Notes under the pieces: model-generated | Databases searched by the model: none | What the model was told of the DNA's origin: nothing | Seen by the model: the letters and a program-made list of their open reading frames with translations, nothing else | Position numbers and translations under genes: made by a program | Assembly (NCBI GenBank): GCA_043826355.1 | Contig: JBDRQI010000004.1 | Location: 46,195-110,194, forward strand | Length of the DNA: 64,000 nt | From: Candidatus Omnitrophota bacterium | Lineage (GTDB): Bacteria; Ratteibacteria; UBA8468; MWAK01 | Direction of reading: 5' to 3' | Shown: positions 3,108-26,471 of the stretch, piece after piece | How the letters are laid out: each line of letters begins with the position of its first letter | How positions within the stretch are numbered: position 1 is the stretch's first letter

Positions 3108-3193
3108 TGTCATTCTGAAGCATAGCGAAGAATCCCGTATTTGTAGGGGCCGCATTAATGCGGCCCGCGGGCGCGATGAATCGCGCCCCTACA
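3108..3193. repeat. REP-like palindrome cluster (TGTCATTCTGA type plus GTAG...CTAC type)
   Basis: tgtcattctgaagcatagcgaagaatcc followed by gtaggggccgc...gcgcccctac hairpin; both motifs recur across the window. Confidence 0.75.
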
Positions 3194-3222
3194 AAAATCG
3201 TATTATCTTGCCCGGAGGAACA

Positions 3223-4442: not shown

Positions 4443-4565
4443 TATAAATTGTCTGTCATTCCCGCGTGTGGTAAGTGGGAATCAACATGTAGTAGGACAG
4501 GCGTCTCGCCTGTTTCTTTTTTGTAATGCGACCCCTTCAAGGTCGCCAATCTTGGTTTAATTACT

Positions 4566-4650
4566 GGAGAGGTGCGAGAGCGGTTGAATCGGCACGATTG
4601 GAAATCGTGTAGCCCGCAAGGGCTCGTGGGTTCGAATCCCACCCTCTCCG
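4566..4650 (+). tRNA. tRNA-Ser (anticodon GGA), CCA not encoded
   Basis: Acceptor GGAGAGG/CCTCTCC, anticodon arm CACGA-TTGGAAA-TCGTG, long variable arm AGCCC-GCAA-GGGCT, T arm GTGGG-TTCGAAT-CCCAC, discriminator G. Confidence 0.97.
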
Positions 4651-4733
4651 CAGATAAGCTTACCTGAAGGTGGGATTCGAGGGGAGCGAAGTAAGGCGTT
4701 GCGACTGGTTAAGGAGCAATGCCAGCGGGTGGC

Positions 4734-5296
4734 CTAGTTGAAACGCAGTGAAGTTGAGACAGCCGAATCCCACCCTCTCCGCTGTTCGTCTGTTTTGGCC
4801 TTTTCGGCAATCAGACGGAAGGCCGGATGCCAGTCAGGGCACAGGTTTCCGTCTTTTAAAACGAGGTTCGAGAACACCAATTTCAGCAGTTGCCGCTTTT
4901 CCTCCACCGAACGTGAAATGTAGATTTCTCTCGCCCGCTGTGCCAGTTCCAGGATGTTCATCCCCAGTTCGAAGTATTTTTCCCGCCCGGTCTCATGCCG
5001 CCTGATTGAATCGAGAACCTCCTCCCTTTCGCCCGAGTACTGTTTGAACTTGCGCCCGTAAAGCTCCTCGCTTATCTTCCCATCCACCTTGTCGTCGTAG
5101 AGGGCATCCTCCCGCCGCTGCAGCGTTTCGTACCGGCGGTTCAGCTCCTCCAAACAGCTCCTATTGTACTCTGTTTCGTCCCGATGGCTCTCCTTGAGGG
5201 CCTTGCGGATCCATTCGATGACCAGGCTATTGCCGGCGGTAAGTCCGTCAAGACACTCGTGGATTTTTTTCTCCAGCCTTTCCTGACGCGTGTACA
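4734..5296 (-). pseudogene. C-terminal fragment of a large serine recombinase (integrase)
   Basis: Coiled-coil ..DALYDDKVDGKISEELY..EEKRQLLKLVFSNLVLKDG.. typical of large serine recombinase C-termini; catalytic N-terminus absent, cut at the inverted repeat at 5297; reads through att as RRGW. Confidence 0.75.
4764..4782 (+). repeat. Direct copy of tRNA-Ser 3' end (att site)
   Basis: cgaatcccaccctctccgc identical to 4633-4651. Confidence 0.9.
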
Positions 5297-5623
5297 TGCT
5301 CTGCACTCTAAAGAAAGGTGGTCCTAAAGACGGGGGAAGGTCATTACGGTCTTGATAATTACCATGTTTACCCAAGAATATAATTGCATAATTTTTAGCA
5401 ACCTCATAATAGGAATCGTTATCCTGGAACCGTTTTCTAGCTAAAACCGTTAGATCTGGAACCTTTATTCTGTCAGACTCAATTAATAGACGCCAGATAT
5501 GCATTTCCTGCCATGGATAGATACAGTCTTTGAGAAACAAGGCGCAATTTGTTTGAACAAATTTATAATTCTTACGTAAGATTTTTCTTTTGGTTCGGCA
5601 TAAATTTAGCACAAAATATTTTC

Positions 5624-8795: not shown

Positions 8796-8952
8796 TTTTC
8801 TCCTTTCGGACAGGTTATCATTATAACCTGCCCAATCCACCCGAACCAAGATTAAAGATCACAAACTAAAAAAGAACCCGGTTTGTCTACTAATTGCTGA
8901 AGATGTACATTTTCTAATATAATTGGAATCTCCATTTGCCCATCAAGGGGAA

Positions 8953-9088
8953 ATATTTTAGCCTGATATTTTGTCTTATTTTATTATATTTTGCTCAGTT
9001 GTATCTAGTTGTCAATTAAAGGGTTGTTCCTCATTCAGTGCACCAAACAAATTTTATCATCCCATCAGGACAGGGTCAAGGTTTTGCA
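8953..9088. repeat. ~135-bp direct repeat, copy A
   Basis: 66-bp core 8994-9059 identical to 14847-14912. Confidence 0.9.
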
Positions 9089-9148: not shown

Positions 9149-9323
9149 ACACTTAAAGAGTTCTGGGAGTTTGCCATGCGGGGCAACGTCCTTGACATGG
9201 CTATCGATATTATCATCGCGTTTTTGGGAAAATCATCACCTCGCTGGTCAAAATAATATTTTGATGTCGCCCATCGGCGCTTTGCTGGGCAAGGCGGATT
9301 TTTCAAATTTTTTCTTTACCGTT
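9149..9323 (+). pseudogene. mscL: Frameshifted, truncated large-conductance mechanosensitive channel
   Basis: Three frames give LKEFWEFAMRGNVLDMAIDIII / GKIITSLVK / NILMSPIGALLGKADFSNFF, matching the MscL N-terminus. Confidence 0.85.
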
Positions 9324-10022
9324 CATTATGTGTCGGTATGCGGGAAAGTGCTTTTTTACAATACTGCGGATATCGGATTCTTCCCTGACGCTTCCTTTCT
9401 CCATCAAGGCCCCGGAAGAAGCTATCTTGTTCACAAAAAGAATATCGTGCGTTACAACAACGAACGTCGTGTATTCTTTTAAACTGGTCAGCCATTTCCC
9501 GAATTCATCGCTTGTATTAACGTCAAGGGCTGAAGTAGGTTCGTCAAGCAGGAGATATTCCGGTTTGAGCATAAGCGACCGTGCGATGGTGGCTCTTTGC
9601 GCCTGGCCCCCGCTTATGGCCGACGGGTAACTGTCTTTCAGGTACGCTATCCCCAGGGTTTCAAGCATGGCGGCGGCTTCTTCCCGCGCGGTGCGTTCGC
9701 TCTTCCCGAGAACCTTCATCGGGGCCAGAATCATGTTTTGAAGCACGTTCAGGTGAGGAAAAAGAAACAACTGCTGGAAAACGATGCTGACGGATTTCCT
9801 GAACTCTTTTTCTTCAATTTCGTAAATGTTCCTGCCCTTAAGGGTTATGCTGCCGGAATGCGGCCGGAGGAATTTGCCGATACATTTCAGCAGGGTGGTC
9901 TTGCCGGAGCCGCTTTCCCCCAGGATAGCGTAAATATGACCGGCGGGAATGCTGAGATTTACATTTGACAGAACCTGCGGGCCGCCGGAATATTTGAAAG
10001 AAATGTTTTTAATTTCAATCAT
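9303..10022 (-). CDS. Polar amino-acid ABC transporter ATPase
   Basis: Walker A GESGSGKT, FQQLFLFPHLNV, ISGGQAQR, LLLDEPTSALD, VTHD. Confidence 0.93.
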   Translation of the reverse strand: MIEIKNISFKYSGGPQVLSNVNLSIPAGHIYAILGESGSGKTTLLKCIGKFLRPHSGSITLKGRNIYEIEEKEFRKSVSIVFQQLFLFPHLNVLQNMILAPMKVLGKSERTAREEAAAMLETLGIAYLKDSYPSAISGGQAQRATIARSLMLKPEYLLLDEPTSALDVNTSDEFGKWLTSLKEYTTFVVVTHDILFVNKIASSGALMEKGSVREESDIRSIVKKHFPAYRHIMNGKEKI

Positions 10023-11454
10023 GGCTGAAACCCCTTTGCTTGATTTTTCTTTCCACCCTTCCGGCCAGTTTCATAAGCGGGAAGGTAAAGGCGAAAAACA
10101 TCACCGCAACGATAAAATAATATTTCATCGGGTTGTAGGTCACGCTGATAATGGATTGGGCTTCGCGTATCACTTCGCTTACGCAAATAACGGAAATTAA
10201 GGTCGTGTCCTTGAGAAACGCGACTACGGAGTTCATTAAAGGAGGCAGGGCAACCCGGAATGCCTGCGGTCCTACCACAAACCTGAATACCTGCAGTTTG
10301 GAGAGGCCGAGCGCGCGTCCCGCCAGCGTCTGTCCGCGGTCGACGGACATCAGCCCGGAACGCACCACCTCCGCGATGTAAGCCGCCGAATTCAGGGTCA
10401 GGGTAATAATCGCCGATTGGATGGGAGAAAGCGTCACCCCTATCTGGGGAGCGCCGAAATAAACGAAAAAGAGCTGTATCAGCAAAGGAGTGCCGCGCAC
10501 AAAATCGTTTGCAAGCCGGAAAACTCCGTGGAATAAAAAGCGGGTGTTGTTCAGGATAATCCCCCACGGCAAAGCCAGCGCAAACCCTAAGGCGAGGGAT
10601 ACGAATGCCACCAGCAGCGTAATCCCGAACCCTTTGGCAAGTTTTCGCGTGATTACCGAACCGCTCATTCCTGCCTGTTCTTTTGTCCCTTCTTTTCTCT
10701 CCCCGGCGCCGAACCATTTTTCGTAAACTTCGTTCAGGCCGCCCGTTTTTTCCAGGTAAAACACCGCTTCATTGATCTGTTTAAGCAGTAAGACGTCGTC
10801 TTTCCTTGTCGGAATACCGATTTTTTCGCGGTACAACAGAGGTCCGACAGCCACAAACGGCATCTCGGCCGAACATATCTGGTATAAACCCACAAGTTTA
10901 TCCGTAACGAACCCGTCAAGCCGTCCAATAAGCATATCCTGAAAAATATCAACGGTGCTTTTGTACGGCACCGTTTCAATTCGGGGATAATTTTTTTCAA
11001 GGTAATATTCGTAGGTTTCTCCAACCCCCACCCCCACCTTTTTCCCGCGAAGGTCGGCAATATTTCTTATTTCATCCGAACGGTCGGAACGGATAAAAAG
11101 CTGGGCGCCGGACGTGTAATAAGGCGCGGAAAAGTTTACCTGCTTCTCCCTTTCCGGGGTTATAGCCATGGAACCTATTATGGCATCGTACTTGCGTGCC
11201 AGGAGCCCGGCCAGAATTCCGTCCCATTCCGTGGTGACGAATACCGCTCTCTTACCCAGACGTGAGGCAATCTTTTCCGATACATCAACGTCAAAACCGG
11301 CAAGGGTCCCCTCGTGGGAGTAAAAACTGAACGGCGGGTACTTTCCGGTCAGGGCAACCCTGAGGACACCGTTATCCCCGCCGGAAGCGCAATAGGTCCA
11401 ACACGGGAAAAAAGCGGCAGTCAGAAAAAGCAGAGAGATAAAAAGTTTTTTCAT
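10015..11454 (-). CDS. Fused polar amino-acid ABC substrate-binding protein and permease
   Basis: Signal peptide; SBP family 3 YPPF..GFDVD..WDGILAGL; permease RGTPLLIQL, SAAYIAEVVRSG. Confidence 0.92.
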   Translation of the reverse strand: MKKLFISLLFLTAAFFPCWTYCASGGDNGVLRVALTGKYPPFSFYSHEGTLAGFDVDVSEKIASRLGKRAVFVTTEWDGILAGLLARKYDAIIGSMAITPEREKQVNFSAPYYTSGAQLFIRSDRSDEIRNIADLRGKKVGVGVGETYEYYLEKNYPRIETVPYKSTVDIFQDMLIGRLDGFVTDKLVGLYQICSAEMPFVAVGPLLYREKIGIPTRKDDVLLLKQINEAVFYLEKTGGLNEVYEKWFGAGERKEGTKEQAGMSGSVITRKLAKGFGITLLVAFVSLALGFALALPWGIILNNTRFLFHGVFRLANDFVRGTPLLIQLFFVYFGAPQIGVTLSPIQSAIITLTLNSAAYIAEVVRSGLMSVDRGQTLAGRALGLSKLQVFRFVVGPQAFRVALPPLMNSVVAFLKDTTLISVICVSEVIREAQSIISVTYNPMKYYFIVAVMFFAFTFPLMKLAGRVERKIKQRGFSHD

Positions 11455-13301
11455 TTGAATATTTTCTCGTAAAGCATGAAATGGCGGCCGGCGCCGTAAA
11501 AATCACTAACGGCAAGGTTTTCGCATACCCGCACCGTCTTTCCCTGGCGGCGGCTTATGTTTGAGTACCCCATCCTCTCAAACAGTTTCCGGGACGGGGT
11601 GTTACGTGGGTCGATGGTCAGCCGAATCTTTTTGCATCCGCAATCTTTCGCTTTCTTTTCGGCCCGGGCTACCAGTTTTGCGCCCATTCCTTTTTTGCGC
11701 ATAAACGGCGCCACGCCGACCTGCCAGAGGAAATACGTGTCGGGCAAAGTACGGGATACCACCCCCAGGAGAAATCCCGCTATTGTCTTGCCGCACCGGA
11801 CAACAAAACACGTTTTGCCGAAATATCTGAACATAATTCTGTAAATATGTTCCGGATAGCTTTCCAGCGGAGGGGACGAGGCGGCAAAACGGCTTACTTC
11901 CGCGGCGTCCCGTTCTTTGGGGGAGCCGATTCTAATCTTGCGGTATTTCCGCGCAAAAGCGAAGACTTTTTTTGTTTTACCGGTGATGAGTTCTTTTGAA
12001 CCGATATCCTTTCTGTAATGGAAGCTTCCTTTCACGGAAGCAATCGCGCGGTCCACTCTTTCGGCTGCTTCCGAAATTGTATTTCCGGATGCGGCAAAAG
12101 CAATTCCCCGTTCCGTGCCCACGTCCAAACCGCCATTCTTTCCCCGGCCGCAACTGTAATAAGCGCTGACATCCAATTCCCTTAAAAATCCGGGCGGGAA
12201 GGAAACGCGGAGCGTTTCGTTAAGCCGGCCGGGATAAGCGGGGGGCACGATATACTTGCATACGGTCGCTTTCTTCTCAAACGAAAGAATCGGGCGGCCG
12301 GAAGAAAGCAAACTCGCGGCAATATCAGCGACGTCATTTTTCATAATCAGGAGGGTGTTGAGCCACTCGGGGTCTCCAGGACGAAAATTATATTCAATCA
12401 ACTTTATCCCGGAGGCCGTTATCATAAACTGGCCGTAAAGAAAACCGGCGCAATCTTCTCCCGTTTCCCTGCGCAAGGCATCCACGGTGGCGCGCATTAT
12501 TTCAAGCGCTGCGGCATAATCGCATTCCCGCATAAAAGGAAGCAGGTAACCGGCGCAGGAATACGCCCCCATCCCCGCGGTGTTCGGCCCGCGCTCCCCG
12601 GAAAGAAGTTTTTTAAAATCCTGCACCGCCGGGGTGCAGACCAGGTTGCCGCCCGCAACAAAAGATTGAACCGTAAATTCTTCGCCTTCAAGTTTTTCTT
12701 CTACGAGAACTTCCTTTTTCCCGCCGATTTTCCCGTTTAACACCCTGCGTATATACGCAGACACATCGGTCCTGTCCTTCAATTGGTTGCCGTAAACCCT
12801 TACCCCCAGGCCTTCGGTCAAACCGGACGGTTTTACGGCAACGCGCCAGTCCATTTTTTTTGCAAACTTAACCGCCGGTTCCGTTTCGGTGAAAATACCG
12901 AATTTCGGCACGCCGTCAATAGCGTATTTGAGCAACAGCCGGCGCGCGAAAGATTTATCGGATTCAAGCCGCGCCGCATTTTTAGAAGGACCAAACACCG
13001 GAATCTCTTTTTCCTTCAACGCATCGACCAGCCCTTCCGAAAGCGGTTTTGCGGTCGTAACCAGAACCAGGTCGGGAACGACCCGTTGGGCGTAACGGGT
13101 TATTCTCTTTATGTCTGAAAAATCACCCGTCGTCCATCCGGCCGCCAGGGAAGTTATTCCCGGATTTTCGGTGTCCATATATGCAAAAACATCGGTCCCT
13201 CCGGAGCGCAACAGGTTTTCCGCGGTCGCCTGTTCTTTCGCCCAACTCCCCACAATCAGAATTCTTCTTCTATTTTTTTTCGGGTGTTTTTGCATTTCCA
13301 C
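11451..13301 (-). CDS. Fusion of divergent PurD-like ATP-grasp amide ligase and C-terminal EctA-like GNAT acetyltransferase
   Basis: ATP-grasp: [33 protein letters not shown]; GNAT: [44 protein letters not shown]. Confidence 0.85.
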
Positions 13302-14616
13302 GCTTTACATCCCTCCTTTTTATCCTTTCCGTATGCCCGGGCGTGAGCGAAATCGTTTTGTCGTAATTGGACAACAACTTCCCGATGCCGGTGGGGTTCC
13401 ATTCTTCGGCGCCCTCAAGGTTTAATTGAAGTTTACAAACCGCGCAATTCCGGTCGCAAAAGATGGGTTTGTAAGAATCGGGTTCCTTATAAGTAGTTAT
13501 AACTCCCTCGTAATTTCTAAGCACTATTTTGTTTGTGGACCACGAAATGATATAATTGGGCAGAATCGGTATTTTGCCGCCGCCGCCCGGAGCGTCTATC
13601 ACGTACCTGGGCACGGCAAATCCGCTGGTATGGCCGATCATGCTCTCGATGATTTCTATGCCTTTTCCGACCGGGGTGCGAAAATGGTTCAATCCTTCGG
13701 AGAGGTCGCATTGGTAAAGATAATAGGGCCTAACCCTGTTTTGCACCAACTTGTGGCAGAGACGCTGCATAATGCGCGGGCAGTCGTTCACTTCCGAAAG
13801 AAGCACCGTCTGATTTCCGAGAGGGATTCCGGCGTCCGCCATCTTCGCCAAAGATTCTCTTGAAGATGCGGTTATTTCTCGCGGGTGGTTGAAATGGGTA
13901 TTGACCCATACGGGATGATACTTTTTAAGTATTTCCACCAGCGTTCCGGTGACGCGGTAAGGAAGCACCACGGGCATTCGTGTCCCTATTCTTATAATTT
14001 CAACATGGGGTATTTTTCTCAAAGAAGAAAGTATCCAATCCAATCTTTCATCCGGAAGCATCAACGGGTCGCCTCCGGAAAGGAGCACGTCCCGGATTGC
14101 GGGAGTTTTTCTGATGTAGCGCAAGCCTTCTTCTGTCTGTTTTTTTGAAGGCAGGTAATCAACGTCGCCCACGCGCCTTTTACGCGTGCAGTGCCGGCAA
14201 TACATCGCGCACATATTGCTGACGAGAAAAAGCACCCTGTCCGGATACCGGTGCGTGATAATTCCTCCGCCCTGGCTGTCCGCATCTTCCGCAAGCGGGT
14301 CTTTCATATCTTCGGGAATTACCTCAAATTCACGGATATCCGGAATGGATTGCTTGTAAATGGGGTCGTTTTTGTAAGAGGCAGTATCTATAAGCGACAA
14401 GTAATAGGGGGTCACCGCAAGCGGAAATTTATCAAGGGTTTTTTTTATCTTCTTTTTTTCCTGAACGGGAAAACGGATGCCGAGCACTCTTTCGACGGTG
14501 TCCGCGTCCCGCACCGAATTCCTGACCTGCCATCGCCAATCACGCCAGTTAATAAGAGCGTCGTTAGAAATCCTTTCCGCAATTATTTTTTGTCTTCGCG
14601 GGTATGATTTTTTCAT
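13270..14616 (-). CDS. kamA: Lysine 2,3-aminomutase (radical SAM, AblA/KamA type)
   Basis: [39 protein letters not shown]-terminal CDRNCAVC. Confidence 0.93.
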
Positions 14617-14741
14617 AAGCGGGGACGTTTTACCGGCAAATAAATCATGCGAATGAATACCGGCGGGTTTTGATTATCAATTACCTTGCGGTTTTGCGTA
14701 TAGGAGAAATTTGTTTTGGATTTTTGTGCTTGCTGGAAATT

Positions 14742-14770
14742 ATAATACCATTTTCGTAAAAAAATGTCAA
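14742..14770 (-). promoter_or_regulatory. sigma70-type promoter for kamA operon
   Basis: Minus strand TTGACA-N17-TATTAT, ~125 bp upstream of the kamA start. Confidence 0.6.
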
Positions 14771-14807
14771 TTTTAATCAGGATACTCCATTTATCCCTCA
14801 ACAAGAG

Positions 14808-14941
14808 ATATTTTAGCCTGATAGTCTGCTTTTTTATTATATTTTACTCAGTTGTATCTAGTTGTCAATTAAAGGGTTGTTCCTCATTCAGTGCACCAAA
14901 CAAATTTTATCACCCTGCCAGGATACGGTCAAGGTTTTGCA
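14808..14941. repeat. ~135-bp direct repeat, copy B
   Basis: Matches 8953-9088; contains minus-strand TTGACA-N16-TAAAAT. Confidence 0.9.
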
Positions 14942-15097
14942 GTCTAAAACTACGACACAGGGGCGGGGTAAATTATTTCTTGTGTTGGCATGACCTTACC
15001 CCGTCTTTATGACCACCTTTTTTAGAGTGCAGAGCAAAAATTTTTAACCTGATGCTCCGCCTTGATCTGTAGAAATTGCATCGTTTCGGTCTCTTGG

Positions 15098-15994
15098 TTA
15101 CTTGCTGCCTACACCTATAAACGGAAGAGGAACGTTTCCGGTAATTGTCTGCGGCAACACCCCGTCCCATTTTTCAAGAGCGGCACGCTGCACCTCTATC
15201 TCTCTCAGTCTTAGCAGTTCCGCGGTTACGTTTTGCCTCTGCAGCCTTAATGATTCTGCTTCTGCTTTTGCCGATTCTATCGTTTGAGCTGCTTCAATTT
15301 TAATTCTTTCTAAATCCCTTTCTGCTTTTAAGGCTTTCTGGGAAGCAATTACTTTTTCTTCGATCGCGCTTGAGAATTCCGGAGAGAATTGGAACTCAGT
15401 TATAGACAGAGTCTGCATCACTATTCCATATTCGGCTATTCTTTCTCCTAAACTTTTTTCGATCTGTTCTTTAACGATAGGTCTTTTTGTTATAAGTTCT
15501 TCTGCTTCAAAGTCAGCGGTTGCTGCCTTGACAGACTCGTGAATTGCAGGGAAAACAACTCTGTCCAGATAATCATCCCGCAACTCCTGATAAATTCCGG
15601 CTACCTTGGTGCGGTCCAGCGCATAGTTCAGGGTAACTTCTGTTTTGACATCCTGTAAATCTTTTGATGCGGAAGTAGCCGAAACAACATAAGCCCTGGT
15701 TTGAACATTAGCGAAAACAACGCTCTCAACCAAAGGAGTTACCAGGTAAATTCCCTCGTTTAAGACCCGTCCCGTTACTCCGCCGAACCTTAAAACAATC
15801 CCCCTGTATCCGGCGGGAACGGCTCCTACCGCTTGAAACAAGCCCAAGAAAAGGAATCCTGCGATAATTGCAAACGCAAGAGGTTTCTGTTTTAATTGGG
15901 TTTCGTTTCCTTCCATCAACCTGCTTACGAGCCCGCTTTTCCACAAACCTATTCCTACCACTACCAAAAAAATCACAAACTTTAATATCGTCAT
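15098..15994 (-). CDS. SPFH/Band 7 (prohibitin-like) membrane protein
   Basis: VPAGYRGIVLRFG, SKDLQDV, FSSAIEEK, EKWDGVLP. Confidence 0.92.
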   Translation of the reverse strand: MTILKFVIFLVVVGIGLWKSGLVSRLMEGNETQLKQKPLAFAIIAGFLFLGLFQAVGAVPAGYRGIVLRFGGVTGRVLNEGIYLVTPLVESVVFANVQTRAYVVSATSASKDLQDVKTEVTLNYALDRTKVAGIYQELRDDYLDRVVFPAIHESVKAATADFEAEELITKRPIVKEQIEKSLGERIAEYGIVMQTLSITEFQFSPEFSSAIEEKVIASQKALKAERDLERIKIEAAQTIESAKAEAESLRLQRQNVTAELLRLREIEVQRAALEKWDGVLPQTITGNVPLPFIGVGSK

Positions 15995-16103
15995 TTTATT
16001 CCCTCCTCATTTTTTTCTTACAGTTTTCCGGAAGTTTTTAACGGCTGGGTTTTTCCCCAAGCGGACAAAACTTAGCTGACGTTCCCCACTTACTTACCAA
16101 AAG

Positions 16104-16171
16104 GAAATATTTTAACCTGATACCCTGCTTTAAGTATCCTCTATTTTACTCCACTACTGTCCAACTGTCAA
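16104..16171 (-). promoter_or_regulatory. Degenerate third copy of the repeat module with TTGACA-N17-TAAAAT promoter
   Basis: tgtcaa 16166-16171, atttta 16143-16148, shared ttttaacctgat motif; upstream of SPFH gene. Confidence 0.55.
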
Positions 16172-17797: not shown

Positions 17798-18970
17798 ATG
17801 AGTGTTTTAACTATTGTTTTTAAAGAGTTACCTCTTCACGATACCTGCTGGTCATTAATCACCGGAGTTGATGGAAATATTTATATCGGAATTTGTGGAG
17901 AGATGACCGGCGGACTTAGCGGCTATATTGCTTCTTACAACCCCAAGACGGAAGAAACAGAATATTTGTTGGAAGTCGCGAAAGCACTCGGCGTTCCGTC
18001 GAATAACGGCCAAGCAAGCCACGCGAAAATCCACTACAGCCTGGTTACCGATAAAGAGGGTATCTTGTATGCCGCAACGCACTGCACAGGTGCTCCCGCA
18101 GGAGATTTTATCTGGAGACCATGGAACTGCTGGACCCATCCAATCAAGAATTTCAGTGGTTCGGGACTTGTCGTTTATGACCCCCGAAAAAAGGAAACAC
18201 TGTTTACGGACTTTCTTCTGCCTAACGAAGGGACCAGATGCATGACGCTTGCTTGTAAAAGAAAGAAGCTCTATGGAATTTCTTATCCCAGAGACCACTT
18301 TTTCACTTATGATTTAAGAAGACGCAAACTCCGCGATTTGGGCAGAATCGGAAGCATCAATCCCCAGGCTATATTTCTTGACCCGGAGGAAAACGGCTAT
18401 ACAACCGACGATTACGGAAATATAATCAAGTATGATGCCGGAAAAGAACAATTGCAGGATATTGATGTCCAAATTCCCCACGCTTCTTTTCGCAACGGCT
18501 TTCACAACGTTCCCTATGACGTAACTCCTTCTCTAGACGGGGAAAGCGTCTACGGGGTAACCTGGGCATTCGGGGAGAGATTGTTCCGTTATGAATTTAA
18601 AAAGAAAAAGATTTATGACTTTGGCAAGGCCTGCGGAGAAGAGAGTGAGGAATGGTCTCACATTATCAAGAGCCACACCGGCGGCCTTGTCTTCGGAGAC
18701 GATGGCAACCTTTACTTTGTTTCTAACCTGGTTTTAAGAGGCAAAAGTTCCCCTCATCTTATCCGCTTTAATCCCGAAACGCTAAAAAGAGAAATTGTCG
18801 AAGAGATAACCTGCCAGGGAAAACCGGCCGACCACATCTCCCGGGCAACATTTGATTCTTTCGGCAATCTATATTTCGCCGAAGTGGGTAACAAACCCAC
18901 CAAAATTTTCAAGTTTGAAGGCGCAAAAACAGCCGATACAACCAAACGAGTGTTTAGACACTGGGGATAA
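17798..18970 (+). CDS. Hypothetical cytoplasmic beta-propeller protein
   Basis: Repeated DGNIY/DGNLY/FGNLY blade motifs and YDP turns; no signal peptide. Confidence 0.65.
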   Translation: MSVLTIVFKELPLHDTCWSLITGVDGNIYIGICGEMTGGLSGYIASYNPKTEETEYLLEVAKALGVPSNNGQASHAKIHYSLVTDKEGILYAATHCTGAPAGDFIWRPWNCWTHPIKNFSGSGLVVYDPRKKETLFTDFLLPNEGTRCMTLACKRKKLYGISYPRDHFFTYDLRRRKLRDLGRIGSINPQAIFLDPEENGYTTDDYGNIIKYDAGKEQLQDIDVQIPHASFRNGFHNVPYDVTPSLDGESVYGVTWAFGERLFRYEFKKKKIYDFGKACGEESEEWSHIIKSHTGGLVFGDDGNLYFVSNLVLRGKSSPHLIRFNPETLKREIVEEITCQGKPADHISRATFDSFGNLYFAEVGNKPTKIFKFEGAKTADTTKRVFRHWG

Positions 18971-18971
18971 A

Positions 18972-20231
18972 ATGAAAAACAAAAAATGGCCTGTTCCGGC
19001 AATTGAAGATGAACGGTTCAAGGGTGAGGGCATAAAACGATTCCTTAAAATGCGGGCGGAGTACGAAAAATCCGCTTTTGTCAGCGAAGGCCATCTGGAA
19101 GTAAGACGGCTTGGTCCGGTTGCTTTTGCTGAAGTAATCCCGCCGGAGGAATGTGCCGTTACTTCGCTGGTGCGTTATTCCAGCGGAAAGATTTACGGCG
19201 GAACCTCCGGCCGGAAAGCTCATTTGTTCTATTACGACCCTTCCCCGGATGCCGACGTCGTTGTTGATGCGGGGGTGGTGGGAGAAAACACCGGGATCAC
19301 CTCTTTGGTCACAGAAGAGACGGGGAAAATATTCGGAGCAACCGACGGTAAAAACGGCGGATTTTTGTTTTCCTACTCTCCGTGTGAAGTGTTGCTTGAT
19401 AAGTTGACGCTGAAAGGAAAAGGACTGCGGGAAATTTTTGACGCTCCGGCCGAAGACCAGGTTTTCCACAGCATCGTTGACCCCTGCCACTCAGCCGGAA
19501 AGGTAGACACTCTCTTAAAGCCGTTCAAACACGAAGGCATTTCTTCTCTGGCAATAGACAATAACCGGAAAATACTCTACGGCCTTTCCTCCAAAAACGG
19601 ATTATTTTTTACTTACGAAATAGAAAAAAAGAAGATTACCGTTAAGGAAAAAATAGATGAAATCAACGAATTTTCCCGAAAATTGCTCATCGTCAAAAAT
19701 GGTATTGTTTACGGTTTGGGATATAAAGGTCAAATTGTCAAATTTGACCCTAAAAAAAGTAAGCTGGAGAGACTGGATATTTTTGCTCCTTCCTTAAAAG
19801 GCAGAGAACTCTACAATCGAGTGGACTGCTGGGTTTTTGATGAAGAGAGCGGTTTGATTTACGGCGGAACAATTGACGGGATTATCTTCATCTTCAATCC
19901 GGAAAACGAAGAGATTATCTGTTTGGGCAAACCGATTGACCAGATGAGAATCCGGGCTTTGACCGTAGGAAAAGACGGACGGGTCTTTGGTGTCGGCGGC
20001 GAGCCGGGCAAATGCTGCCATCTCTTTGTTTATGAACCGAGAAAACGGCAACTCCGTGACTTGGGAGTTTTATTGGCGACCCACGAAACCCCATGGTGCG
20101 GATATGAGATAGATTCTGCGGTTACCGGTAAGGACGGTGAGATTTATCTCGGCGAAAGCGACCGGATAAGCCACCTTTTTATCTATTTTCCACAAATTGA
20201 AAGGAGAAATGCATGCCAGAAATCAGAGTAG
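18972..20231 (+). CDS. Hypothetical beta-propeller protein (partner of upstream gene)
   Basis: Repeated GKIYGGT/GLIYGGT/DGRVFG/DGEIYLG and HLFxYxP motifs; start set to ATG 18972. Confidence 0.65.
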   Translation: MKNKKWPVPAIEDERFKGEGIKRFLKMRAEYEKSAFVSEGHLEVRRLGPVAFAEVIPPEECAVTSLVRYSSGKIYGGTSGRKAHLFYYDPSPDADVVVDAGVVGENTGITSLVTEETGKIFGATDGKNGGFLFSYSPCEVLLDKLTLKGKGLREIFDAPAEDQVFHSIVDPCHSAGKVDTLLKPFKHEGISSLAIDNNRKILYGLSSKNGLFFTYEIEKKKITVKEKIDEINEFSRKLLIVKNGIVYGLGYKGQIVKFDPKKSKLERLDIFAPSLKGRELYNRVDCWVFDEESGLIYGGTIDGIIFIFNPENEEIICLGKPIDQMRIRALTVGKDGRVFGVGGEPGKCCHLFVYEPRKRQLRDLGVLLATHETPWCGYEIDSAVTGKDGEIYLGESDRISHLFIYFPQIERRNACQKSE

Positions 20232-20296
20232 CGGTAATCGGGGTAGACAATTGCACCAACTCTTTATTTATTTCCTTCTTAACGGAGGTAATATGA
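20213..20296 (+). pseudogene. N-terminal stub resembling myo-inositol-1-phosphate synthase
   Basis: RBS aaggag then MPEIRVAVIGVDNCTNSL, cf. Ino1 start IRVAIIGVGNCASSL; stops after 27 codons. Confidence 0.6.
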
Positions 20297-20475
20297 GGGG
20301 TATAATTGGAGGGATAATTAAGTGGTATGCTTTTGACCTTAATCGTTGGGTCGGTTAGAGGAGAGGAATTAAAACTCAAACCATTTTTGTATGAGGAAAA
20401 TTTTGAAACCGATGACCCTTTTGTAGATTGGGTAAATCCCGGAGGGGGTAAGGTTAATTTTAAAGGAGACTCCAA

Positions 20476-23211
20476 ATGGGACAGATTAATAAAGTTGCAT
20501 TGAAAATCCTGAGAATGTTAACAGTGGCAGGGTTTGTAGTATTTAATCAGACCTCTCTTGTTTCAGCGAATAACATAACCGACGATGGTTCGCTTAGGCT
20601 TTTGTTTCACTTTGATGAAAATGAAGGTTGGGTGACTAAGGATTCCAATTCTTGCGGTAGTGATGGAAGAATTGTTCGTGATTGTGTATGGGCATCAGAA
20701 AAACATCCGGAGGACGCGTTGGTTAGCATCGAAAAGTTCTCTCAAGTTCGCGCGGCAGAAGAGGAAATATCCTTACGTCAGAACGAGAACGTTGCTTTGC
20801 GTAAGAAGTACACTTTTTCCCTGGTTCCGAATTATTGGGGGTCTAAGGACGACGGAGACATGCTTCAACTTACCGACGGCAAGTATGCCTCGGTTCCTTA
20901 CGAACAGTCCGTAGATAAAGGTAATTTTTGGACTCAAAAGCCAGTTGTTGGTTGGCATGTTTCCCTAAAACCTTTAGAAATAAAGATTGACCTGGGCACA
21001 GTTTATCCTATTAGCGAAGTTATCTTTAGCACTGCCTCCCGCCTCGAGTCAGAGGTTGGTTTTCCTTTAATAGAAGTTTTAGTAAGTGACGACGATGCAA
21101 TATATACGCTGGTAGGTAAAATATCGGATGAGAATCTGGTTATTGAGCACCTCGATCCTCGGCAGGAGTATAGACGCAAACTTAGAACCGGGGACATGAA
21201 GACTCGCGGCAGATATGTTTTGCTGTGTGTTGTACCCGATAAAGGATCATATGTTTTCTGCGACGAAATAGAGATAATAAAAAGCGATCGTGATTCCGAC
21301 AAAGTGAATCTTGACGGATTGCCTCGCTTCACTCTGGAACAAATCAGTAAGAGGGGAGATCGCGCTCTGCAAATAAAAAGGTCAGCAGAGATAATGAGGT
21401 TAAATCTTAGAACAATACGGGAGAATTTGGAACAAGCGAAACTTTCGGAAAAGACAGCCGCATTGACTGAGAACGAGTTAAAAAAACTGGAGGATGATGT
21501 CAAATCCAGCGCAGCAACATTGATGACAGAAGAACTGGTTGATAGTTTTAACCGGAGAATAGTCGAAATCAGCAGTCGGATAAATCAGGCTATCTTTCCC
21601 GAAACGCCTTATGTCGTCTGGTATAAAAATCTCTGGGAAGATTTCACCCCCTATGAATTACCTCAGCCAACGGGTTTACCGTTCGGAGAGATTTCTATCT
21701 TTATGGGAAAAAATGAATATGAACCTGCTGCTTTTATGATTACCAATACTGCCGACAAAGACGTTACAGTAAAAATAGAAATCCCGGATATTCTGGACAA
21801 ATACAAGCAGAAAATGATTAATATCGACGTAAGATACAGTGTGTTTGTTCAAACATCGGCACTTAAATTGTTGGTCGCAGACGCCCTGCCGTCTGCTCTG
21901 GTGGGTGGGGCTAACTATGTTACCGTTCCTCAGGGACAAACCAGGCAAATCTGGTTAACTTTAAAAACCGATGAGAGAATAACGCCGGGTGAGTATAAAA
22001 TAAAAGTGCATATTGTTTCGGATTCCGGTTCCAAATTTATTGCTATCAAGTCTGTGGTTTATCCATTGGTTCTACCCGATACCGATAGATTCACTGCCCT
22101 TAATGTCACTTGGGGCAGTATTTCAAATCTTTCTAAAATAGAAACAATTGTCCCGGCGGATCTTTTGTCTCATCATGTTAATTGTATTCCCATCTATTGT
22201 CCGCCGGATGCTCAGCCACGCTTTGATAAGGATGGGAACATTGTTAAATCTGCCGATTACAGCAAAATAGATAATGAATTAAACTTATACGGCAACAATG
22301 TTTTTTACCTCTTTTACTGGTATGGATGGAAACCCGGATCGGAACAAGTGAAATTGTACAGCGGGTTAGAATACCTTAGTCCGGAATGGAAGAAAGCTTT
22401 TAAGAGTTGGGTTAGCGAGTTTGTCGGGCACCTTACGGAAAGGGGAATAAATTATGGAAATTTTGCTTTTTACCCGTGTGACGAACCAAACACAGAAGAT
22501 TTGAAGAAGTTCTTTATGGAAAGTGCCGCGCAAATAAAGGAGACAGACCCGAAAATAAATATTTTCGTCACTATGAATTTCCGCGACTGGTCGTTTGAAG
22601 ATTTAAATAAATCTCTTCCTTACGCAGATATTTATTGTTTTTGTCCTTTCTGGCAGAGAATAGCAGATTTAAAGAAAATAGCACTTCTGAAAAACGCCAA
22701 CAAAATTACTATCGCGTATAATTCTCCCTGTGCCAATAAATGGGAATCACCAACTGTTGGATTTCGAGTGATATTCTGGCAGGCCTGGTCCTGGGGACTT
22801 GATGGATATGGAACTTGGCGTTATTATAATAAAACAGGTGATTCTGTCTGGGATGACTTTGACGGAACCAGAGGTGATGAGGCGTTTGTCTATGATGGGA
22901 AAAATGCGCCATTCAGAACTGCGGAAGAGATTATCCCGAGTAAAAGATGGGAAGCTTACCGGGAGGGCATAGAGGACTGGGAGTACTTACATATGCTGAA
23001 AGCGGTAATTGCTGAATCCGAAAAAAAAGGAATTTCCAAAAGTACCGTTGAGAAAGCCCGGGAGGCATTAAAAGAAGAGGTGGATAAATTAACCAAAAAG
23101 ATTGACGGAACGCCTGTCTCGACAAGGGACAAGATTGATCCCATGTTGGTTGATAAAGCAAGACAAAAGATTGCAGAAGAAATTATTTCAATGGAGCAAC
23201 TTCTGCAGTGA
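20476..23211 (+). CDS. Secreted glycoside-hydrolase-like protein (discoidin/CBM-like plus GH123/DUF4091-like)
   Basis: Signal peptide; LamG-like stub LLFHFDENEG; QLTDG..IDLG..RGRYV..CDEIEI; DEP motif; PSKRWEAYREGIEDWEYL. Confidence 0.65.
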   Translation: MGQINKVALKILRMLTVAGFVVFNQTSLVSANNITDDGSLRLLFHFDENEGWVTKDSNSCGSDGRIVRDCVWASEKHPEDALVSIEKFSQVRAAEEEISLRQNENVALRKKYTFSLVPNYWGSKDDGDMLQLTDGKYASVPYEQSVDKGNFWTQKPVVGWHVSLKPLEIKIDLGTVYPISEVIFSTASRLESEVGFPLIEVLVSDDDAIYTLVGKISDENLVIEHLDPRQEYRRKLRTGDMKTRGRYVLLCVVPDKGSYVFCDEIEIIKSDRDSDKVNLDGLPRFTLEQISKRGDRALQIKRSAEIMRLNLRTIRENLEQAKLSEKTAALTENELKKLEDDVKSSAATLMTEELVDSFNRRIVEISSRINQAIFPETPYVVWYKNLWEDFTPYELPQPTGLPFGEISIFMGKNEYEPAAFMITNTADKDVTVKIEIPDILDKYKQKMINIDVRYSVFVQTSALKLLVADALPSALVGGANYVTVPQGQTRQIWLTLKTDERITPGEYKIKVHIVSDSGSKFIAIKSVVYPLVLPDTDRFTALNVTWGSISNLSKIETIVPADLLSHHVNCIPIYCPPDAQPRFDKDGNIVKSADYSKIDNELNLYGNNVFYLFYWYGWKPGSEQVKLYSGLEYLSPEWKKAFKSWVSEFVGHLTERGINYGNFAFYPCDEPNTEDLKKFFMESAAQIKETDPKINIFVTMNFRDWSFEDLNKSLPYADIYCFCPFWQRIADLKKIALLKNANKITIAYNSPCANKWESPTVGFRVIFWQAWSWGLDGYGTWRYYNKTGDSVWDDFDGTRGDEAFVYDGKNAPFRTAEEIIPSKRWEAYREGIEDWEYLHMLKAVIAESEKKGISKSTVEKAREALKEEVDKLTKKIDGTPVSTRDKIDPMLVDKARQKIAEEIISMEQLLQ

Positions 23212-23908: not shown

Positions 23909-25051
23909 ATGAATTCAAAAGAGAGATTTGAAGCGGTTCTGCTGAAAAAGAAGACCGACAAAATCCCGGTTAACCATCGCGGATTTTCCTCCAAAGCGGC
24001 TTCCTACATCATCGGCCGGGAAGCGTATGTAGGCGGAGGCATTCAGCAGTGGCGGGAATCAAAGTCGCTCTTTGAGGGATGGCATGAGGAGTTTCTGGAA
24101 CGTTCATTCCGGGACGCTGTTGATTTGTCCCTGGCCACCCGCCAGGATATGATAAGGCCGGGATATTGGCGCCTGCCGAAAAAACCGACCGGAAAGATTG
24201 ATGAGAACACCTACCTCTACGCGTGCGGAGAAGAAAAGGACTGGGAGGTCCTTCGCTTCAACCCGGAAAGCGAACAGGCGAATACGTTCCCCCGCCTGCC
24301 ACGCGAAACAACAATTGACGACCTGAAGAAAGAGGTAAATGATAACGATAAAAAGGTTGCGTCATATCAACCCTCTGAATCGGACTTTGCCGAATCCATA
24401 AAAGCGCAGGGACTCTACTTGGATAAATATGCCGTTGAGGTCGGCGGCGTCGGTGTAGGCATACCGGCCCGAAACGCGAATATCTGGATGGAGATGATGC
24501 TGCTGGACCCGGGAGTGGTAGAGGCGCACATAAATCAGCAGGTTGAAACAGCGAGAAGAAACGTGGCCTTCCTGTCGAAATACAAATTCCGCTATTTCCT
24601 GGGCGGAGGGGATTTCGCTTCAGAAAACGGACCTTTTTATTCTCCTCCGTTGTTCCGAAAACTAATTCTGCCCGGGATAAAAAAGGTCTCCGAAATATGT
24701 CATGAATACGGAGGGTACCATTTCTTTGCCAGCGACGGAAACCTCTGGCCGGTCTCTCAGTATCTTTTCGGGGAATCCGGCACAGACGTATATTTTGAAA
24801 TAGACCGGAAAGCCGGAATGGACCTGGAACTTCTGAGGCAAAGATTTCCAAACCTGTCGCTTTTGGGAAACATCAGTTCCTGGACGCTGGCGCGGGGAAC
24901 CAAAGAAACGGTCAGGCAGGAAGTCCTCTCGTGCCTGGAAACGGCAAAAAAGTACGGCGGGATAATTGCGGGGGTTTCAAATTATATCCTGGCCGAAACA
25001 CCGCCGGAAAATATGGACACGCTGCTGGAAACGATTGAAAAAGAAAGGTAA
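23909..25051 (+). CDS. Uroporphyrinogen decarboxylase-superfamily (URO-D/MtaA-like) protein
   Basis: MNSKERF..DKIP start; GDFASENGPFYSP; SDGN; LLGNIS; GGIIAGVSN..ETPPEN. Confidence 0.8.
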   Translation: MNSKERFEAVLLKKKTDKIPVNHRGFSSKAASYIIGREAYVGGGIQQWRESKSLFEGWHEEFLERSFRDAVDLSLATRQDMIRPGYWRLPKKPTGKIDENTYLYACGEEKDWEVLRFNPESEQANTFPRLPRETTIDDLKKEVNDNDKKVASYQPSESDFAESIKAQGLYLDKYAVEVGGVGVGIPARNANIWMEMMLLDPGVVEAHINQQVETARRNVAFLSKYKFRYFLGGGDFASENGPFYSPPLFRKLILPGIKKVSEICHEYGGYHFFASDGNLWPVSQYLFGESGTDVYFEIDRKAGMDLELLRQRFPNLSLLGNISSWTLARGTKETVRQEVLSCLETAKKYGGIIAGVSNYILAETPPENMDTLLETIEKER

Positions 25052-25088
25052 GGGGCTAACGGATGCGCCGCGGTCGGAATATGATAAT

Positions 25089-25256
25089 ATGATTTGGCAG
25101 AATAAAACGGTAGTCTTTCTGGACCTGGAAACGACCGGGCTTACCCCGGGTCAGGACCGGACTGTCGAAATCGGCGCCCTGAAGACAAAAAACCGGAAAG
25201 AGGGTAGAATCATTTGTAACATTAAAAGAGGCAAGACAGAAAGAGAAATTTTATAA
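25089..25256 (+). pseudogene. Truncated DEDDh 3'-5' exonuclease (DnaQ-like)
   Basis: VVFLDLETTGLTPGQDRTVEIGALK ExoI motif only, then early stop. Confidence 0.7.
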
Positions 25257-25320
25257 ATCCGCAACGTAGCGAAGAGTTTCAAAGAAAATGCTTTTTAATT
25301 AACGAAGCCTTGGCGTAGTC

Positions 25321-25337
25321 AATCCCACCCTCTCCGC
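25321..25337 (+). repeat. tRNA-Ser 3'-end copy (distal att)
   Basis: aatcccaccctctccgc = 4635-4651. Confidence 0.85.
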
Positions 25338-25412
25338 CTACGCTCGCCATAGTGAGCTTCGGCGGACGCAGTCCAGCATTGGTTTGATGCTAAATCAAAA
25401 ACAGAGGAAAAA

Positions 25413-26471
25413 ATGAAAGAGACCATGACCGGGAAAGAAAGGTGGCTGGCGGTATTGCAGAGGAAGTCTCCCGACCGGATTCCCATGGACTACTGGTCCA
25501 CCCCGGAGGTTGACGAAAAACTGAAGAAACATTTCGGCTGCGCAGAGATGGAGGAGGTTTTTAAGAGACTAAGGATAGACCGTCCTCTAGGTGTCGGGCC
25601 CGAATATGTCGGGCCGAAGGTTCCGGAAGGTTTTGATATCTACGGCTGCCAGCGCCGCACGGTTGACTACGGAACAGGCAGTTACCAGGAGTGCGTGAGC
25701 CACCCGCTGGCCGAATTTACTTCAACGGCCGAGATTGAGCAAAAATATGCCTGGCCCAGCATCGATCATTATGATTTTTCAGCGGTAAAAAGACAGGTTG
25801 CGGGTAAGGATGACCGCCCGGTAGTCGGGGGAGGCTCTGAACCCTTCTTAACTTATAAACAATTAAGGGGAGACATTCAGGCATTTGTTGACCTGGTTGA
25901 AAATCCCGAAATCATTGAATACTGCCTGGGCAAACTCTTCGGCTTTCAATACGAATTAACCCGCAGAATTTACGAGGCCATTCCCGGGAAGGTCGACATC
26001 TCTTACGTGGCCGAAGATCTGGGCGCCCAGGAGGGCCTGATGTACAGCCCGGACCAGATCAGGAGGTTCTTTCTTCCCTGGATGAAGCGGATGATGGAAC
26101 TTGTCCACCAGGGCGACGGCTTTGTTTTCTTTCACAGCGACGGTTCCATCAGAAAGATAATACCTGAGATGATCGCAACCGGCGTGGATATTTTAAACCC
26201 GATTCAGTGGAGATGCAAAGGGATGGAAAAAGAGGGTTTAAAGAAAGATTTCGGGGGAGAGTTGATATTCCACGGCGGGGTTGACAATCAGCAAATCCTG
26301 CCTTTTGGAACCGCGGCCGAGGTAAGGGCGGAAGTAATCGAAGATATTGAAATCTTCGGGAAAGGCGGCGGGTATATCCTTGCCCCCTGCCACAATATCC
26401 AGCCGGTCACCCCGGTGGAGAATATCGTTGCCATGTACGAAACCGGCTATGAATACGGCTGGGTGGAGTGA
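25413..26471 (+). CDS. Uroporphyrinogen decarboxylase-superfamily protein
   Basis: MTGKER..PDRIP; EDLG; FHSDG; LNPIQ; FHGGVD; GGYILAPCHNIQ. Confidence 0.88.
   Translation: MKETMTGKERWLAVLQRKSPDRIPMDYWSTPEVDEKLKKHFGCAEMEEVFKRLRIDRPLGVGPEYVGPKVPEGFDIYGCQRRTVDYGTGSYQECVSHPLAEFTSTAEIEQKYAWPSIDHYDFSAVKRQVAGKDDRPVVGGGSEPFLTYKQLRGDIQAFVDLVENPEIIEYCLGKLFGFQYELTRRIYEAIPGKVDISYVAEDLGAQEGLMYSPDQIRRFFLPWMKRMMELVHQGDGFVFFHSDGSIRKIIPEMIATGVDILNPIQWRCKGMEKEGLKKDFGGELIFHGGVDNQQILPFGTAAEVRAEVIEDIEIFGKGGGYILAPCHNIQPVTPVENIVAMYETGYEYGWVE

Follow-up and report, generated by a model that had tools for sequence, protein, structure and literature searches.

A 64,000-nucleotide window of a Candidatus Omnitrophota genome (contig JBDRQI010000004.1; the window is this whole stretch of DNA) carries on its minus strand, at 9303-14616, an operon of four overlapping genes, in which a lysine 2,3-aminomutase (KamA) is followed by a fusion of a PurD-fold ATP-grasp ligase and an EctA-like GNAT acetyltransferase domain, and by the two proteins of an ABC transporter. 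We give about an even chance to the reading that this operon is a horizontally acquired module making a small molecule derived from beta-lysine by means of the fused ligase and acetyltransferase, probably a compatible solute. The broader proposal is more tentative and falls somewhat short of even: that a PurD paralog was recruited from purine synthesis to form an amide bond on beta-lysine, and that, with the EctA-like GNAT and KamA, it makes up a mobile pathway of three enzymes whose product is an as yet undescribed dipeptide-type solute of N-acetylated beta-lysine and which, going by record titles, is present in at least twelve phyla of bacteria and archaea. An undescribed beta-lysine-derived metabolite is proposed because the trio of kamA, ligase and GNAT recurs in many phyla of both domains. 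The interpretation offered by the first-pass annotation, namely an acetylated beta-lysyl amide or dipeptide as compatible solute, is partly supported. The operon contains the following features:

13270-14616, minus strand: kamA/ablA, lysine 2,3-aminomutase (radical SAM, PLP), 448 amino acids, 742 bits on TIGR03820
11451-13301, minus strand: PurD-like ligase/GNAT fusion, 616 amino acids from a GTG start, stop codon at 11451-11453
11982-13268, minus strand: PurD-fold ATP-grasp ligase domain of the fusion, residues 12-440 (GARS_N, GARS_A, GARS_C)
11454-11939, minus strand: EctA-like GNAT acetyltransferase domain of the fusion, residues 455-616 (Acetyltransf_1, 63.6 bits)
10015-11454, minus strand: fused solute-binding protein (SBP) and permease of a polar-amino-acid ABC importer, 479 amino acids (SBP_bac_3, BPD_transp_1)
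9303-10022, minus strand: ABC transporter ATPase (GlnQ/ArtP-like), 239 amino acids (ABC_tran, 131 bits)

Coordinates, strand and domain content, as first annotated, were borne out by the open reading frames (ORFs) and by Pfam and NCBIfam profiles with curated cut-offs, which were used for all domain and family assignments. Successive genes overlap by 32 nt, 4 nt and 8 nt, the first overlap shrinking to 26 nt if the fusion starts at an ATG two codons further in, which yields the 614-residue form of the public record. A promoter scan placed three sigma-70-like sites upstream of kamA, within 14742-14932 and thus 125-315 nt from the gene (TTGACA-16-TAAAAT at 14868-14841, TTGACC-17-TAAAAT at 14932-14904, and TTGACA-17-TATTAT at 14770-14742), and only weaker matches, of 9 of 12 positions, inside the operon. 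A single promoter for the four genes is plausible on these matches. The Rfam scan found no RNA family or riboswitch at 14500-15200 upstream of kamA, nor elsewhere in the operon, its one match in the whole window being a tRNA-Ser.

Homology shows the first gene to encode a predicted enzyme making beta-lysine from L-lysine. Its product has the LAM_C and Radical_SAM domains and exceeds the cut-off of the AblA equivalog model TIGR03820 by a wide margin (742 bits against 525.4), whereas the models for glutamate and arginine 2,3-aminomutases both stay under theirs. Aligned to C. subterminale's lysine 2,3-aminomutase (LAM), 2A5H (E 4e-145), it keeps the CxxxCxxC cluster (C136/C140/C143) and the lysine of GGGGK, presumably the PLP lysine. 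The two aspartates singled out in the first-pass annotation as lysine-binding, D304 (QCD) and D341 (VID), fall on D293 and D330 of 2A5H, which we take to bind the epsilon-ammonium group of lysine.

The relatives of the fusion were collected from one genome per species with two peptide patterns drawn from an alignment of 20 homologues. The resulting 58 loci comprise 49 of the family and 9 ordinary PurDs (34-39% identity), and the 49 belong to 47 genomes, since two assemblies contribute a pair each; labels in L and G below denote such loci and genomes. A protein search additionally gave about 90 clusters of the fused form (44-55% identity) and unfused ligases of about 450 residues (54-58% identity).

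The ligase domain is a diverged paralog of PurD. Both share the three-domain fold: in the AlphaFold model of the fusion (pLDDT 89.7, pTM 0.73), where a helix at residues 436-453 joins the two domains, the best Foldseek match of the ligase is the Aquifex PurD 2yw2, with a target-normalised TM of 0.90. On the purD model TIGR00877 the fusion scores 310.2-311.5 bits, marginally over the cut-off of 288, whereas the true purD of the same genome, on a separate contig (C36), reaches 509 bits. True PurDs, found in 41 of the 47 genomes, score 413-566 bits on this model, against 270-334 bits for the family copies, which straddle the cut-off. In a maximum-likelihood tree, 44 family ligase domains form one branch (SH-aLRT 100, branch length 0.55) apart from 29 PurDs, 21 of which come from genomes that also carry a family ligase.

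This separation is accompanied by the replacement of residues that are nearly invariant in PurD. The GGREHA motif reads SWAKEQ in the window (G to W20, R to K22), GPE becomes T82-T83-A84 (TTA), and the lysine of the B-loop GLAAGK becomes L165, the window reading GLTEGL; further switches turn H into F229 and GG into A242-S243 (G243 in the window). The family residues are conserved at 93-100% in the 44 family rows, and their PurD counterparts at 90-100% in the 29 PurDs. In addition, the PROSITE pattern PS00184, R-[LF]-G-D-P-E-x-[EQIM] (PMC3261824, cited here, like the other papers, from the available portions of its text), fails at two positions, residues 307-314 of the window's protein being R-P-G-D-P-E-W-L, and both P308 and W313 are invariant among the 20 aligned homologues. 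The residues kept are K116, K157, E201, D228, K230, E303, N305, R307, D310 and E312, whose counterparts in PurD serve ATP, Mg and glycine (PMC8880213, PMC2978367), and the ATP-, Mg- and acyl-substrate-binding residues are invariant across the 44 members. Human GARS binds a sulfate beside its active site through the Arg of GGREHA and the short helix after GPE, and the Glu neighbouring this Arg has been proposed to orient the ribose of phosphoribosylamine (PMC2978367). Since the ATP, Mg and glycine sites are kept while other PurD-invariant residues are replaced, the domain would be an active ATP-grasp enzyme with an altered nucleophile site.

A PurD role for the fusion is unlikely, given the separate true purD, the clade of its own and the loss of PurD-invariant residues. 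Its joining to a GNAT and its linkage to kamA, rather than to pur genes, set it further apart from PurD. Even so, family relatives, where named, are called phosphoribosylamine--glycine ligase, a name that most of them receive automatically because they score 270-334 bits on a model whose cut-off is 288, and as a consequence their genomes appear to hold two purD genes. The extra "PurD-like" proteins of haloarchaea are a different thing, being described as devoid of GARS_N in the available portions of PMC3261824.

The GNAT domain has EctA as its closest solved relative. Its three best PDB matches are all EctA (6sjy, 6sk1 and 3d3s; E 2e-12 to 5e-10), and the alignment spans a shared F-x-W-Q-V-x-V-A stretch and an R/Q-x-x-G-x-G/A motif, which we take to be the acetyl-CoA motif. 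However, the domain reaches only 69.4 bits on the EctA equivalog model TIGR02406, whose cut-off is 120.6, and the operon contains neither ectB nor ectC. The first-pass description of a PurD-fold ligase fused to an EctA-like acetyltransferase thus stands as far as the fold and the nearest solved GNAT are concerned, but not as membership of EctA itself. The domain shows no similarity to the AblB of Methanoperedens (BLASTP E 56), a protein scoring 331.9 bits on the AblB model TIGR03827, and this model finds no match anywhere in the window's genome, an assembly of 1.87 Mb in 38 contigs that is 85.7% complete.

According to public records, the bacterial hosts of the family belong to Calditrichota, Atribacterota, KSB1, Acidobacteriota, Bacteroidota, Omnitrophota, Auribacterota, Elusimicrobiota, Planctomycetota and Chloroflexota, and the archaeal ones to Methanoperedenaceae (ANME-2d Methanoperedens), Methanocellaceae, Thermoplasmatota and Promethearchaeia (Asgard). 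Ligase and GNAT are fused or adjacent at all family loci, the ligase never being missing from the pair. The family tree is discordant with taxonomy, and the state of the pair, fused or split, switches at least twice, or six times by parsimony. Other ATP-grasp and GNAT fusions in the Protein Atlas are of the CPSase_L_D2, Dala_Dala_lig_C and PylC-like types, with none of the GARS type among the large clusters. A search of longer proteins for fusions of KamA, ligase and GNAT, or for other Rosetta-stone fusions, returned only one unrelated PurD-PurH-type multidomain protein, which is weak evidence.

A survey of the fusion's neighbourhood, proposed as a check in the first-pass annotation, ties the pair to KamA: in 34 of the 47 genomes, the gene immediately upstream of it on the same strand belongs to the KamA family. 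These adjacency counts rest on tblastn, as calling the longest ORF gave spurious long frames in GC-rich loci, L019 and L042 among them. Of the adjacent KamAs, 32 are 50-72% identical to that of the window, and the other two, from Bacteroidales, are more distant members of the KamA family with both aspartates kept. In the Bacteroidales variant (L020:2151-5160 and L022:6782-9791), the fusion stands beside a 399-residue KamA-family protein that scores 356-359 bits and is not an AblA equivalog, being closer to the score range of EpmB/AblA-like-2. Of the 13 genomes with no adjacent kamA, ten encode an AblA-type protein above the cut-off at another place, two give partial hits (one truncated by the end of its contig) and a single one (G003) gives none. 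In total, an AblA-type KamA accompanies ligase and GNAT in 44 of the 47 genomes, or in 46 with the two partial hits. At another locus, from a single-cell assembly of Euryarchaeota (L049:6612-7616), the usual place of kamA is taken by the gene of a PALP-family PLP enzyme, which runs into the beginning of the split ligase gene; the KamA of this genome lies on another contig (509 bits).

The relation of the pair to AblB is less simple. AblB exceeds its cut-off in 11 of the 47 genomes. In nine of them the fusion lies apart from kamA, which sits with ablB in an operon of its own, and in seven of these nine a Na+/solute symporter (SSF, about 475 residues) directly follows kamA, in the order kamA, symporter, ablB (loci L063, L065, L066, L068, L070, L072 and L073; also G001:C30 and G002:C14). 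G006 has the symporter after kamA, with no AblB found. The other two, Methanoperedens BLZ2 and M. nitroreducens, hold ablB inside the cluster itself, in the order MscS, kamA, ablB, ligase, GNAT and another radical-SAM gene of the KamA family. The remaining 32 genomes in which the cassette adjoins kamA gave no AblB match, and among seven Methanoperedenaceae assemblies, five have kamA followed by ligase and GNAT with no AblB found. The first-pass statement that ablB is replaced by the fusion therefore fits the window's genome but does not hold in general: since both coexist in 11 genomes, the pair is not a simple stand-in for AblB. In genomes whose cassette adjoins kamA, the pair is in most cases the sole candidate consumer of beta-lysine.

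The additional radical-SAM gene of Methanoperedenaceae, downstream of the GNAT (L032:9852-11666; also L023, L025 and L047), encodes a KamA-family protein of about 600 residues with K and N at the two lysine-binding aspartate sites of LAM, presumably the signature of glutamate 2,3-aminomutase. On the model of that enzyme it reaches 262 bits (cut-off 650). It may be a beta-glutamate gene of the same osmolyte cluster.

The last two genes of the window's operon encode an importer of the polar-amino-acid type. The fused protein has an N-terminal signal-like hydrophobic stretch, a binding domain at about residues 27-250 and a permease at about 270-474, and the ATPase scores 190.6 bits on the GlnQ model and 173.8 bits on the ArtP model, both under the cut-off. 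SBP_bac_3, BPD_transp_1 and ABC_tran thus occur together, with no equivalog model passing its cut-off. The closest solved binding proteins are AncQR, AncCDT-1, the Thermotoga ArgBP and the Thermus 3vv5, which we take to be binders of Arg, Lys or Orn. Such an importer adjoins the ligase at two places only, in the window and at the Anaerolineales locus L042 (61% and 54% identity). In the kamA-ablB operons of G004 and G007, an SBP/permease and an ATPase of the window's type (53-56% identity) take the place of the symporter. The transporter goes with kamA rather than with the ligase, and recurs in beta-lysine operons. The first-pass annotation had counted it as part of the pathway, with dedicated uptake of precursor or product; its genes do belong to the operon, but they lie outside the conserved cassette. 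As an importer or symporter accompanies kamA in kamA-ablB operons too, a shared precursor is the likelier ligand and the end product a less likely one, so that the importer would bring in lysine or another cationic precursor.

Taken together, these elements suggest the following pathway. The ABC importer would take up a cationic amino acid, most likely lysine, and KamA, judging from its equivalog-level homology and conserved substrate residues, would convert L-lysine into beta-lysine. Beta-lysine, or a derivative of it, would then undergo two coupled reactions on the fusion: the neofunctionalised PurD paralog would form an acyl-phosphate from ATP and then an amide bond, and the EctA-like GNAT domain would use acetyl-CoA to acetylate a free amine. 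What results is probably an amide or dipeptide of N-acetylated beta-lysine that carries no net charge and differs from N-epsilon-acetyl-beta-lysine, with N-epsilon-(N-acetylglycyl)-beta-lysine and an N-acetyl-beta-lysyl amino acid as candidates. In the first option, glycine or another amino acid would be placed on the epsilon-amine and then N-acetylated; in the second, the carboxylate of beta-lysine would be joined to an amino acid and one amine acetylated. Both are favoured because the solute should have no net charge. The most probable role is that of a compatible solute, and we infer both product and role from the enzymes and their context. This context is osmotic where it speaks at all: an MscS channel and ablB in the two Methanoperedens clusters, and the Na+/solute symporter in the kamA-ablB operons. 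In Methanoperedens, moreover, the ynaI-kamA-ablB genes have been reported to be induced by salt, and the genes downstream are given as "of unknown function" in the available portions of PMC11337218.

Three known systems offer partial precedents. The AblA/AblB pathway has the same first enzyme, an AblA equivalog, with a GNAT after it, and meets the cassette in one MscS-bearing cluster in the two Methanoperedens; the GNAT of the cassette, however, is EctA-like, an ATP-grasp ligase is always added, and AblB was not found in most of the genomes whose cassette adjoins kamA. Ngg, a bifunctional GNAT/ATP-grasp enzyme in the synthesis of N-acetylglutaminylglutamine amide (NAGGN), makes an N-acetylated dipeptide-type solute and, like the fusion, combines an acetyl-CoA-dependent GNAT with an ATP-grasp amide ligase in one polypeptide. 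However, on the Ngg model TIGR03103 the fusion reaches 20.2 bits against a cut-off of 569, and this through its GNAT part only; its domain order is reversed, its ATP-grasp domain is of the GARS type, and no asnO-like amidotransferase is seen in the operon. In the PylB/PylC system of pyrrolysine synthesis, a radical-SAM mutase acting on lysine supplies an ATP-grasp ligase, whose product is an amide of a lysine-derived amine. The logic of mutase and ligase is alike, by analogy only, whereas the families differ, PylB not being of the KamA type and PylC resembling D-Ala-D-Ala ligase, and the cassette has a GNAT but no PylD.

Several observations weigh against the compatible-solute pathway proposed here. 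The product is a prediction from gene content, and the conserved glycine-site residues do not tell which substrate is the acyl donor. The 47 genomes, recovered with two peptide patterns, are a biased sample, and most are incomplete metagenome-assembled genomes. The nine genomes with a separate operon of kamA, transporter and ablB fall in one clade of fused forms in the tree, and the pattern of adjacency and AblB therefore reflects few independent events. The top salt-responsive feature in a Methanoperedens enrichment was plain N-epsilon-acetyl-beta-lysine, according to the available portions of PMC11337218. Finally, the DNA of the window seems to derive from a groundwater metagenome rather than from an evidently saline setting.

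That last point would also suit a product that contains beta-lysine but serves no osmotic purpose: it might be a secondary metabolite, act as a signal or chelator, or modify another cell component with beta-lysyl groups. The absence of any osmotic-stress gene from the window's own operon and the horizontal movement of the cassette, with its tree discordant with taxonomy, are in keeping with such a role. However, the cassette is tiny, with no conserved nonribosomal peptide synthetase, tailoring or export genes around it, and very small genomes (1.2-1.5 Mb) are among those carrying it; in addition, its context, where present, is the osmotic one described above (MscS channel, ablB, Na+/solute symporter). 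We regard a non-osmotic role as unlikely, if still worth considering.

Somewhat less likely again is that the fusion is an alternative beta-lysine N-acetyltransferase, in which the GNAT does the job of AblB and yields N-epsilon-acetyl-beta-lysine, the PurD-like domain being regulatory or a scaffold. In its favour, EctA, the nearest GNAT of solved structure, transfers an acetyl group to the distal amine of a diamino acid, and AblB was found neither in 32 of the 34 genomes whose cassette abuts kamA nor in that of the window. However, the invariance of the ligase's ATP, Mg and acyl-substrate residues in 44 members fits an active enzyme, every pair includes the ligase, and 11 of the 47 genomes keep AblB alongside the pair.

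Lysine catabolism or detoxification, where imported lysine would undergo isomerisation followed by acetylation or ligation in order to be broken down, is very unlikely. It would account for the amino-acid importer in the same operon, and KamA does initiate lysine fermentation in clostridia. Nevertheless, spending ATP on an amide bond is anabolic, and no conserved catabolic neighbours were seen at the 47 loci; the genome also lacks a match to beta-lysine 5,6-aminomutase (KamD, PF09043), a weak point since control genomes gave no match either. Finally, that the fusion is a genuine bifunctional PurD of purine synthesis, as public annotation has it on the strength of its fold, its score just over the TIGR00877 cut-off and the naming of its relatives, is highly improbable in view of a true purD elsewhere in the window's genome and in at least 41 of the 47 others, the distinct clade with GGREHA, GPE and the B-loop Lys lost, the two failing positions of the PROSITE GARS pattern, and a genomic context of kamA instead of pur genes.

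Returning to the proposed module, the operon looks horizontally acquired, because neither the fusion nor an AblA-type KamA over the cut-off is found in any of 60 related genomes (4 of the same genus, 4 of the same family and 52 of the same class). The same counts set a low background for the co-occurrence of the pair with KamA. Among the DNA matches listed for eight genomes of the same family, none covers the operon, while its neighbours, a Na+/H+ exchanger, a CBS gene and an insertion sequence (IS), do match. This IS, with HTH_Tnp_1 and rve ORFs, lies directly downstream of the operon. The operon is also bracketed by two direct copies of a repeat of about 165 nt:

14780-14941, minus strand: upstream copy, located upstream of kamA, with two sigma-70-like matches inside and the third, at 14770-14742, just downstream of it
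8925-9088, minus strand: downstream direct copy, located upstream of a transposase ORF, with two sigma-70-like matches inside

The copies lie 5853-5855 nt apart and share 89% identity over 157 nt (range 89-94%). A third, partial copy stands at 16083-16122, upstream of a Band7 gene, and seven shorter copies are found on other contigs of the genome. It is possible that the operon was integrated by recombination at this resident repeat.

Other repeats occur in the same region. A 47-nt sequence is present in inverted orientation at 5297-5344 and 14990-15036 (94% identity), enclosing the Na+/H+ exchanger, the CBS gene, the IS and the operon; the sequence, which was not reported by a repeat search with a 30-nt minimum, also occurs in a genome of the same genus. 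Around the tRNA-Ser (4566-4651), at about 4560-4790, and at about 3140-3200, short sequences recur dozens of times at 75-94% identity over the contigs of this genome and of its genus and family relatives, and look like dispersed repeats of the miniature inverted-repeat transposable element (MITE) or repetitive extragenic palindromic (REP) kind. Elsewhere in the window, two adjacent URO-D-family genes (380 and 352 amino acids; 23909-26471) follow three large ORFs with no Pfam match (17798-23211). The window also holds genes for NamZ, a MurQ-like SIS protein, an alginate-export porin and a GntR regulator, which indicate that the host is a bacterium with an outer membrane.

As the first-pass annotation had supposed, no description of a system combining KamA, a PurD-like ligase and a GNAT was found by full-text searches of the literature or in the available portions of PMC11337218, PMC9128505, PMC9337991 and PMC3261824. 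The trio is a well-conserved, mobile and undescribed beta-lysine cassette. If the proposed pathway is correct, a new beta-lysine-derived metabolite and its route would join the short list of compatible-solute pathways, and the GARS/PurD family would gain its first function outside purine synthesis. It would also expose a systematic misannotation of these proteins as PurD, which matters for the metabolic reconstruction of uncultured anaerobes. Lastly, because five of the seven Methanoperedenaceae assemblies carry ligase and GNAT after kamA with no AblB found, the salt response of methane-oxidising Methanoperedens would have to be interpreted differently.

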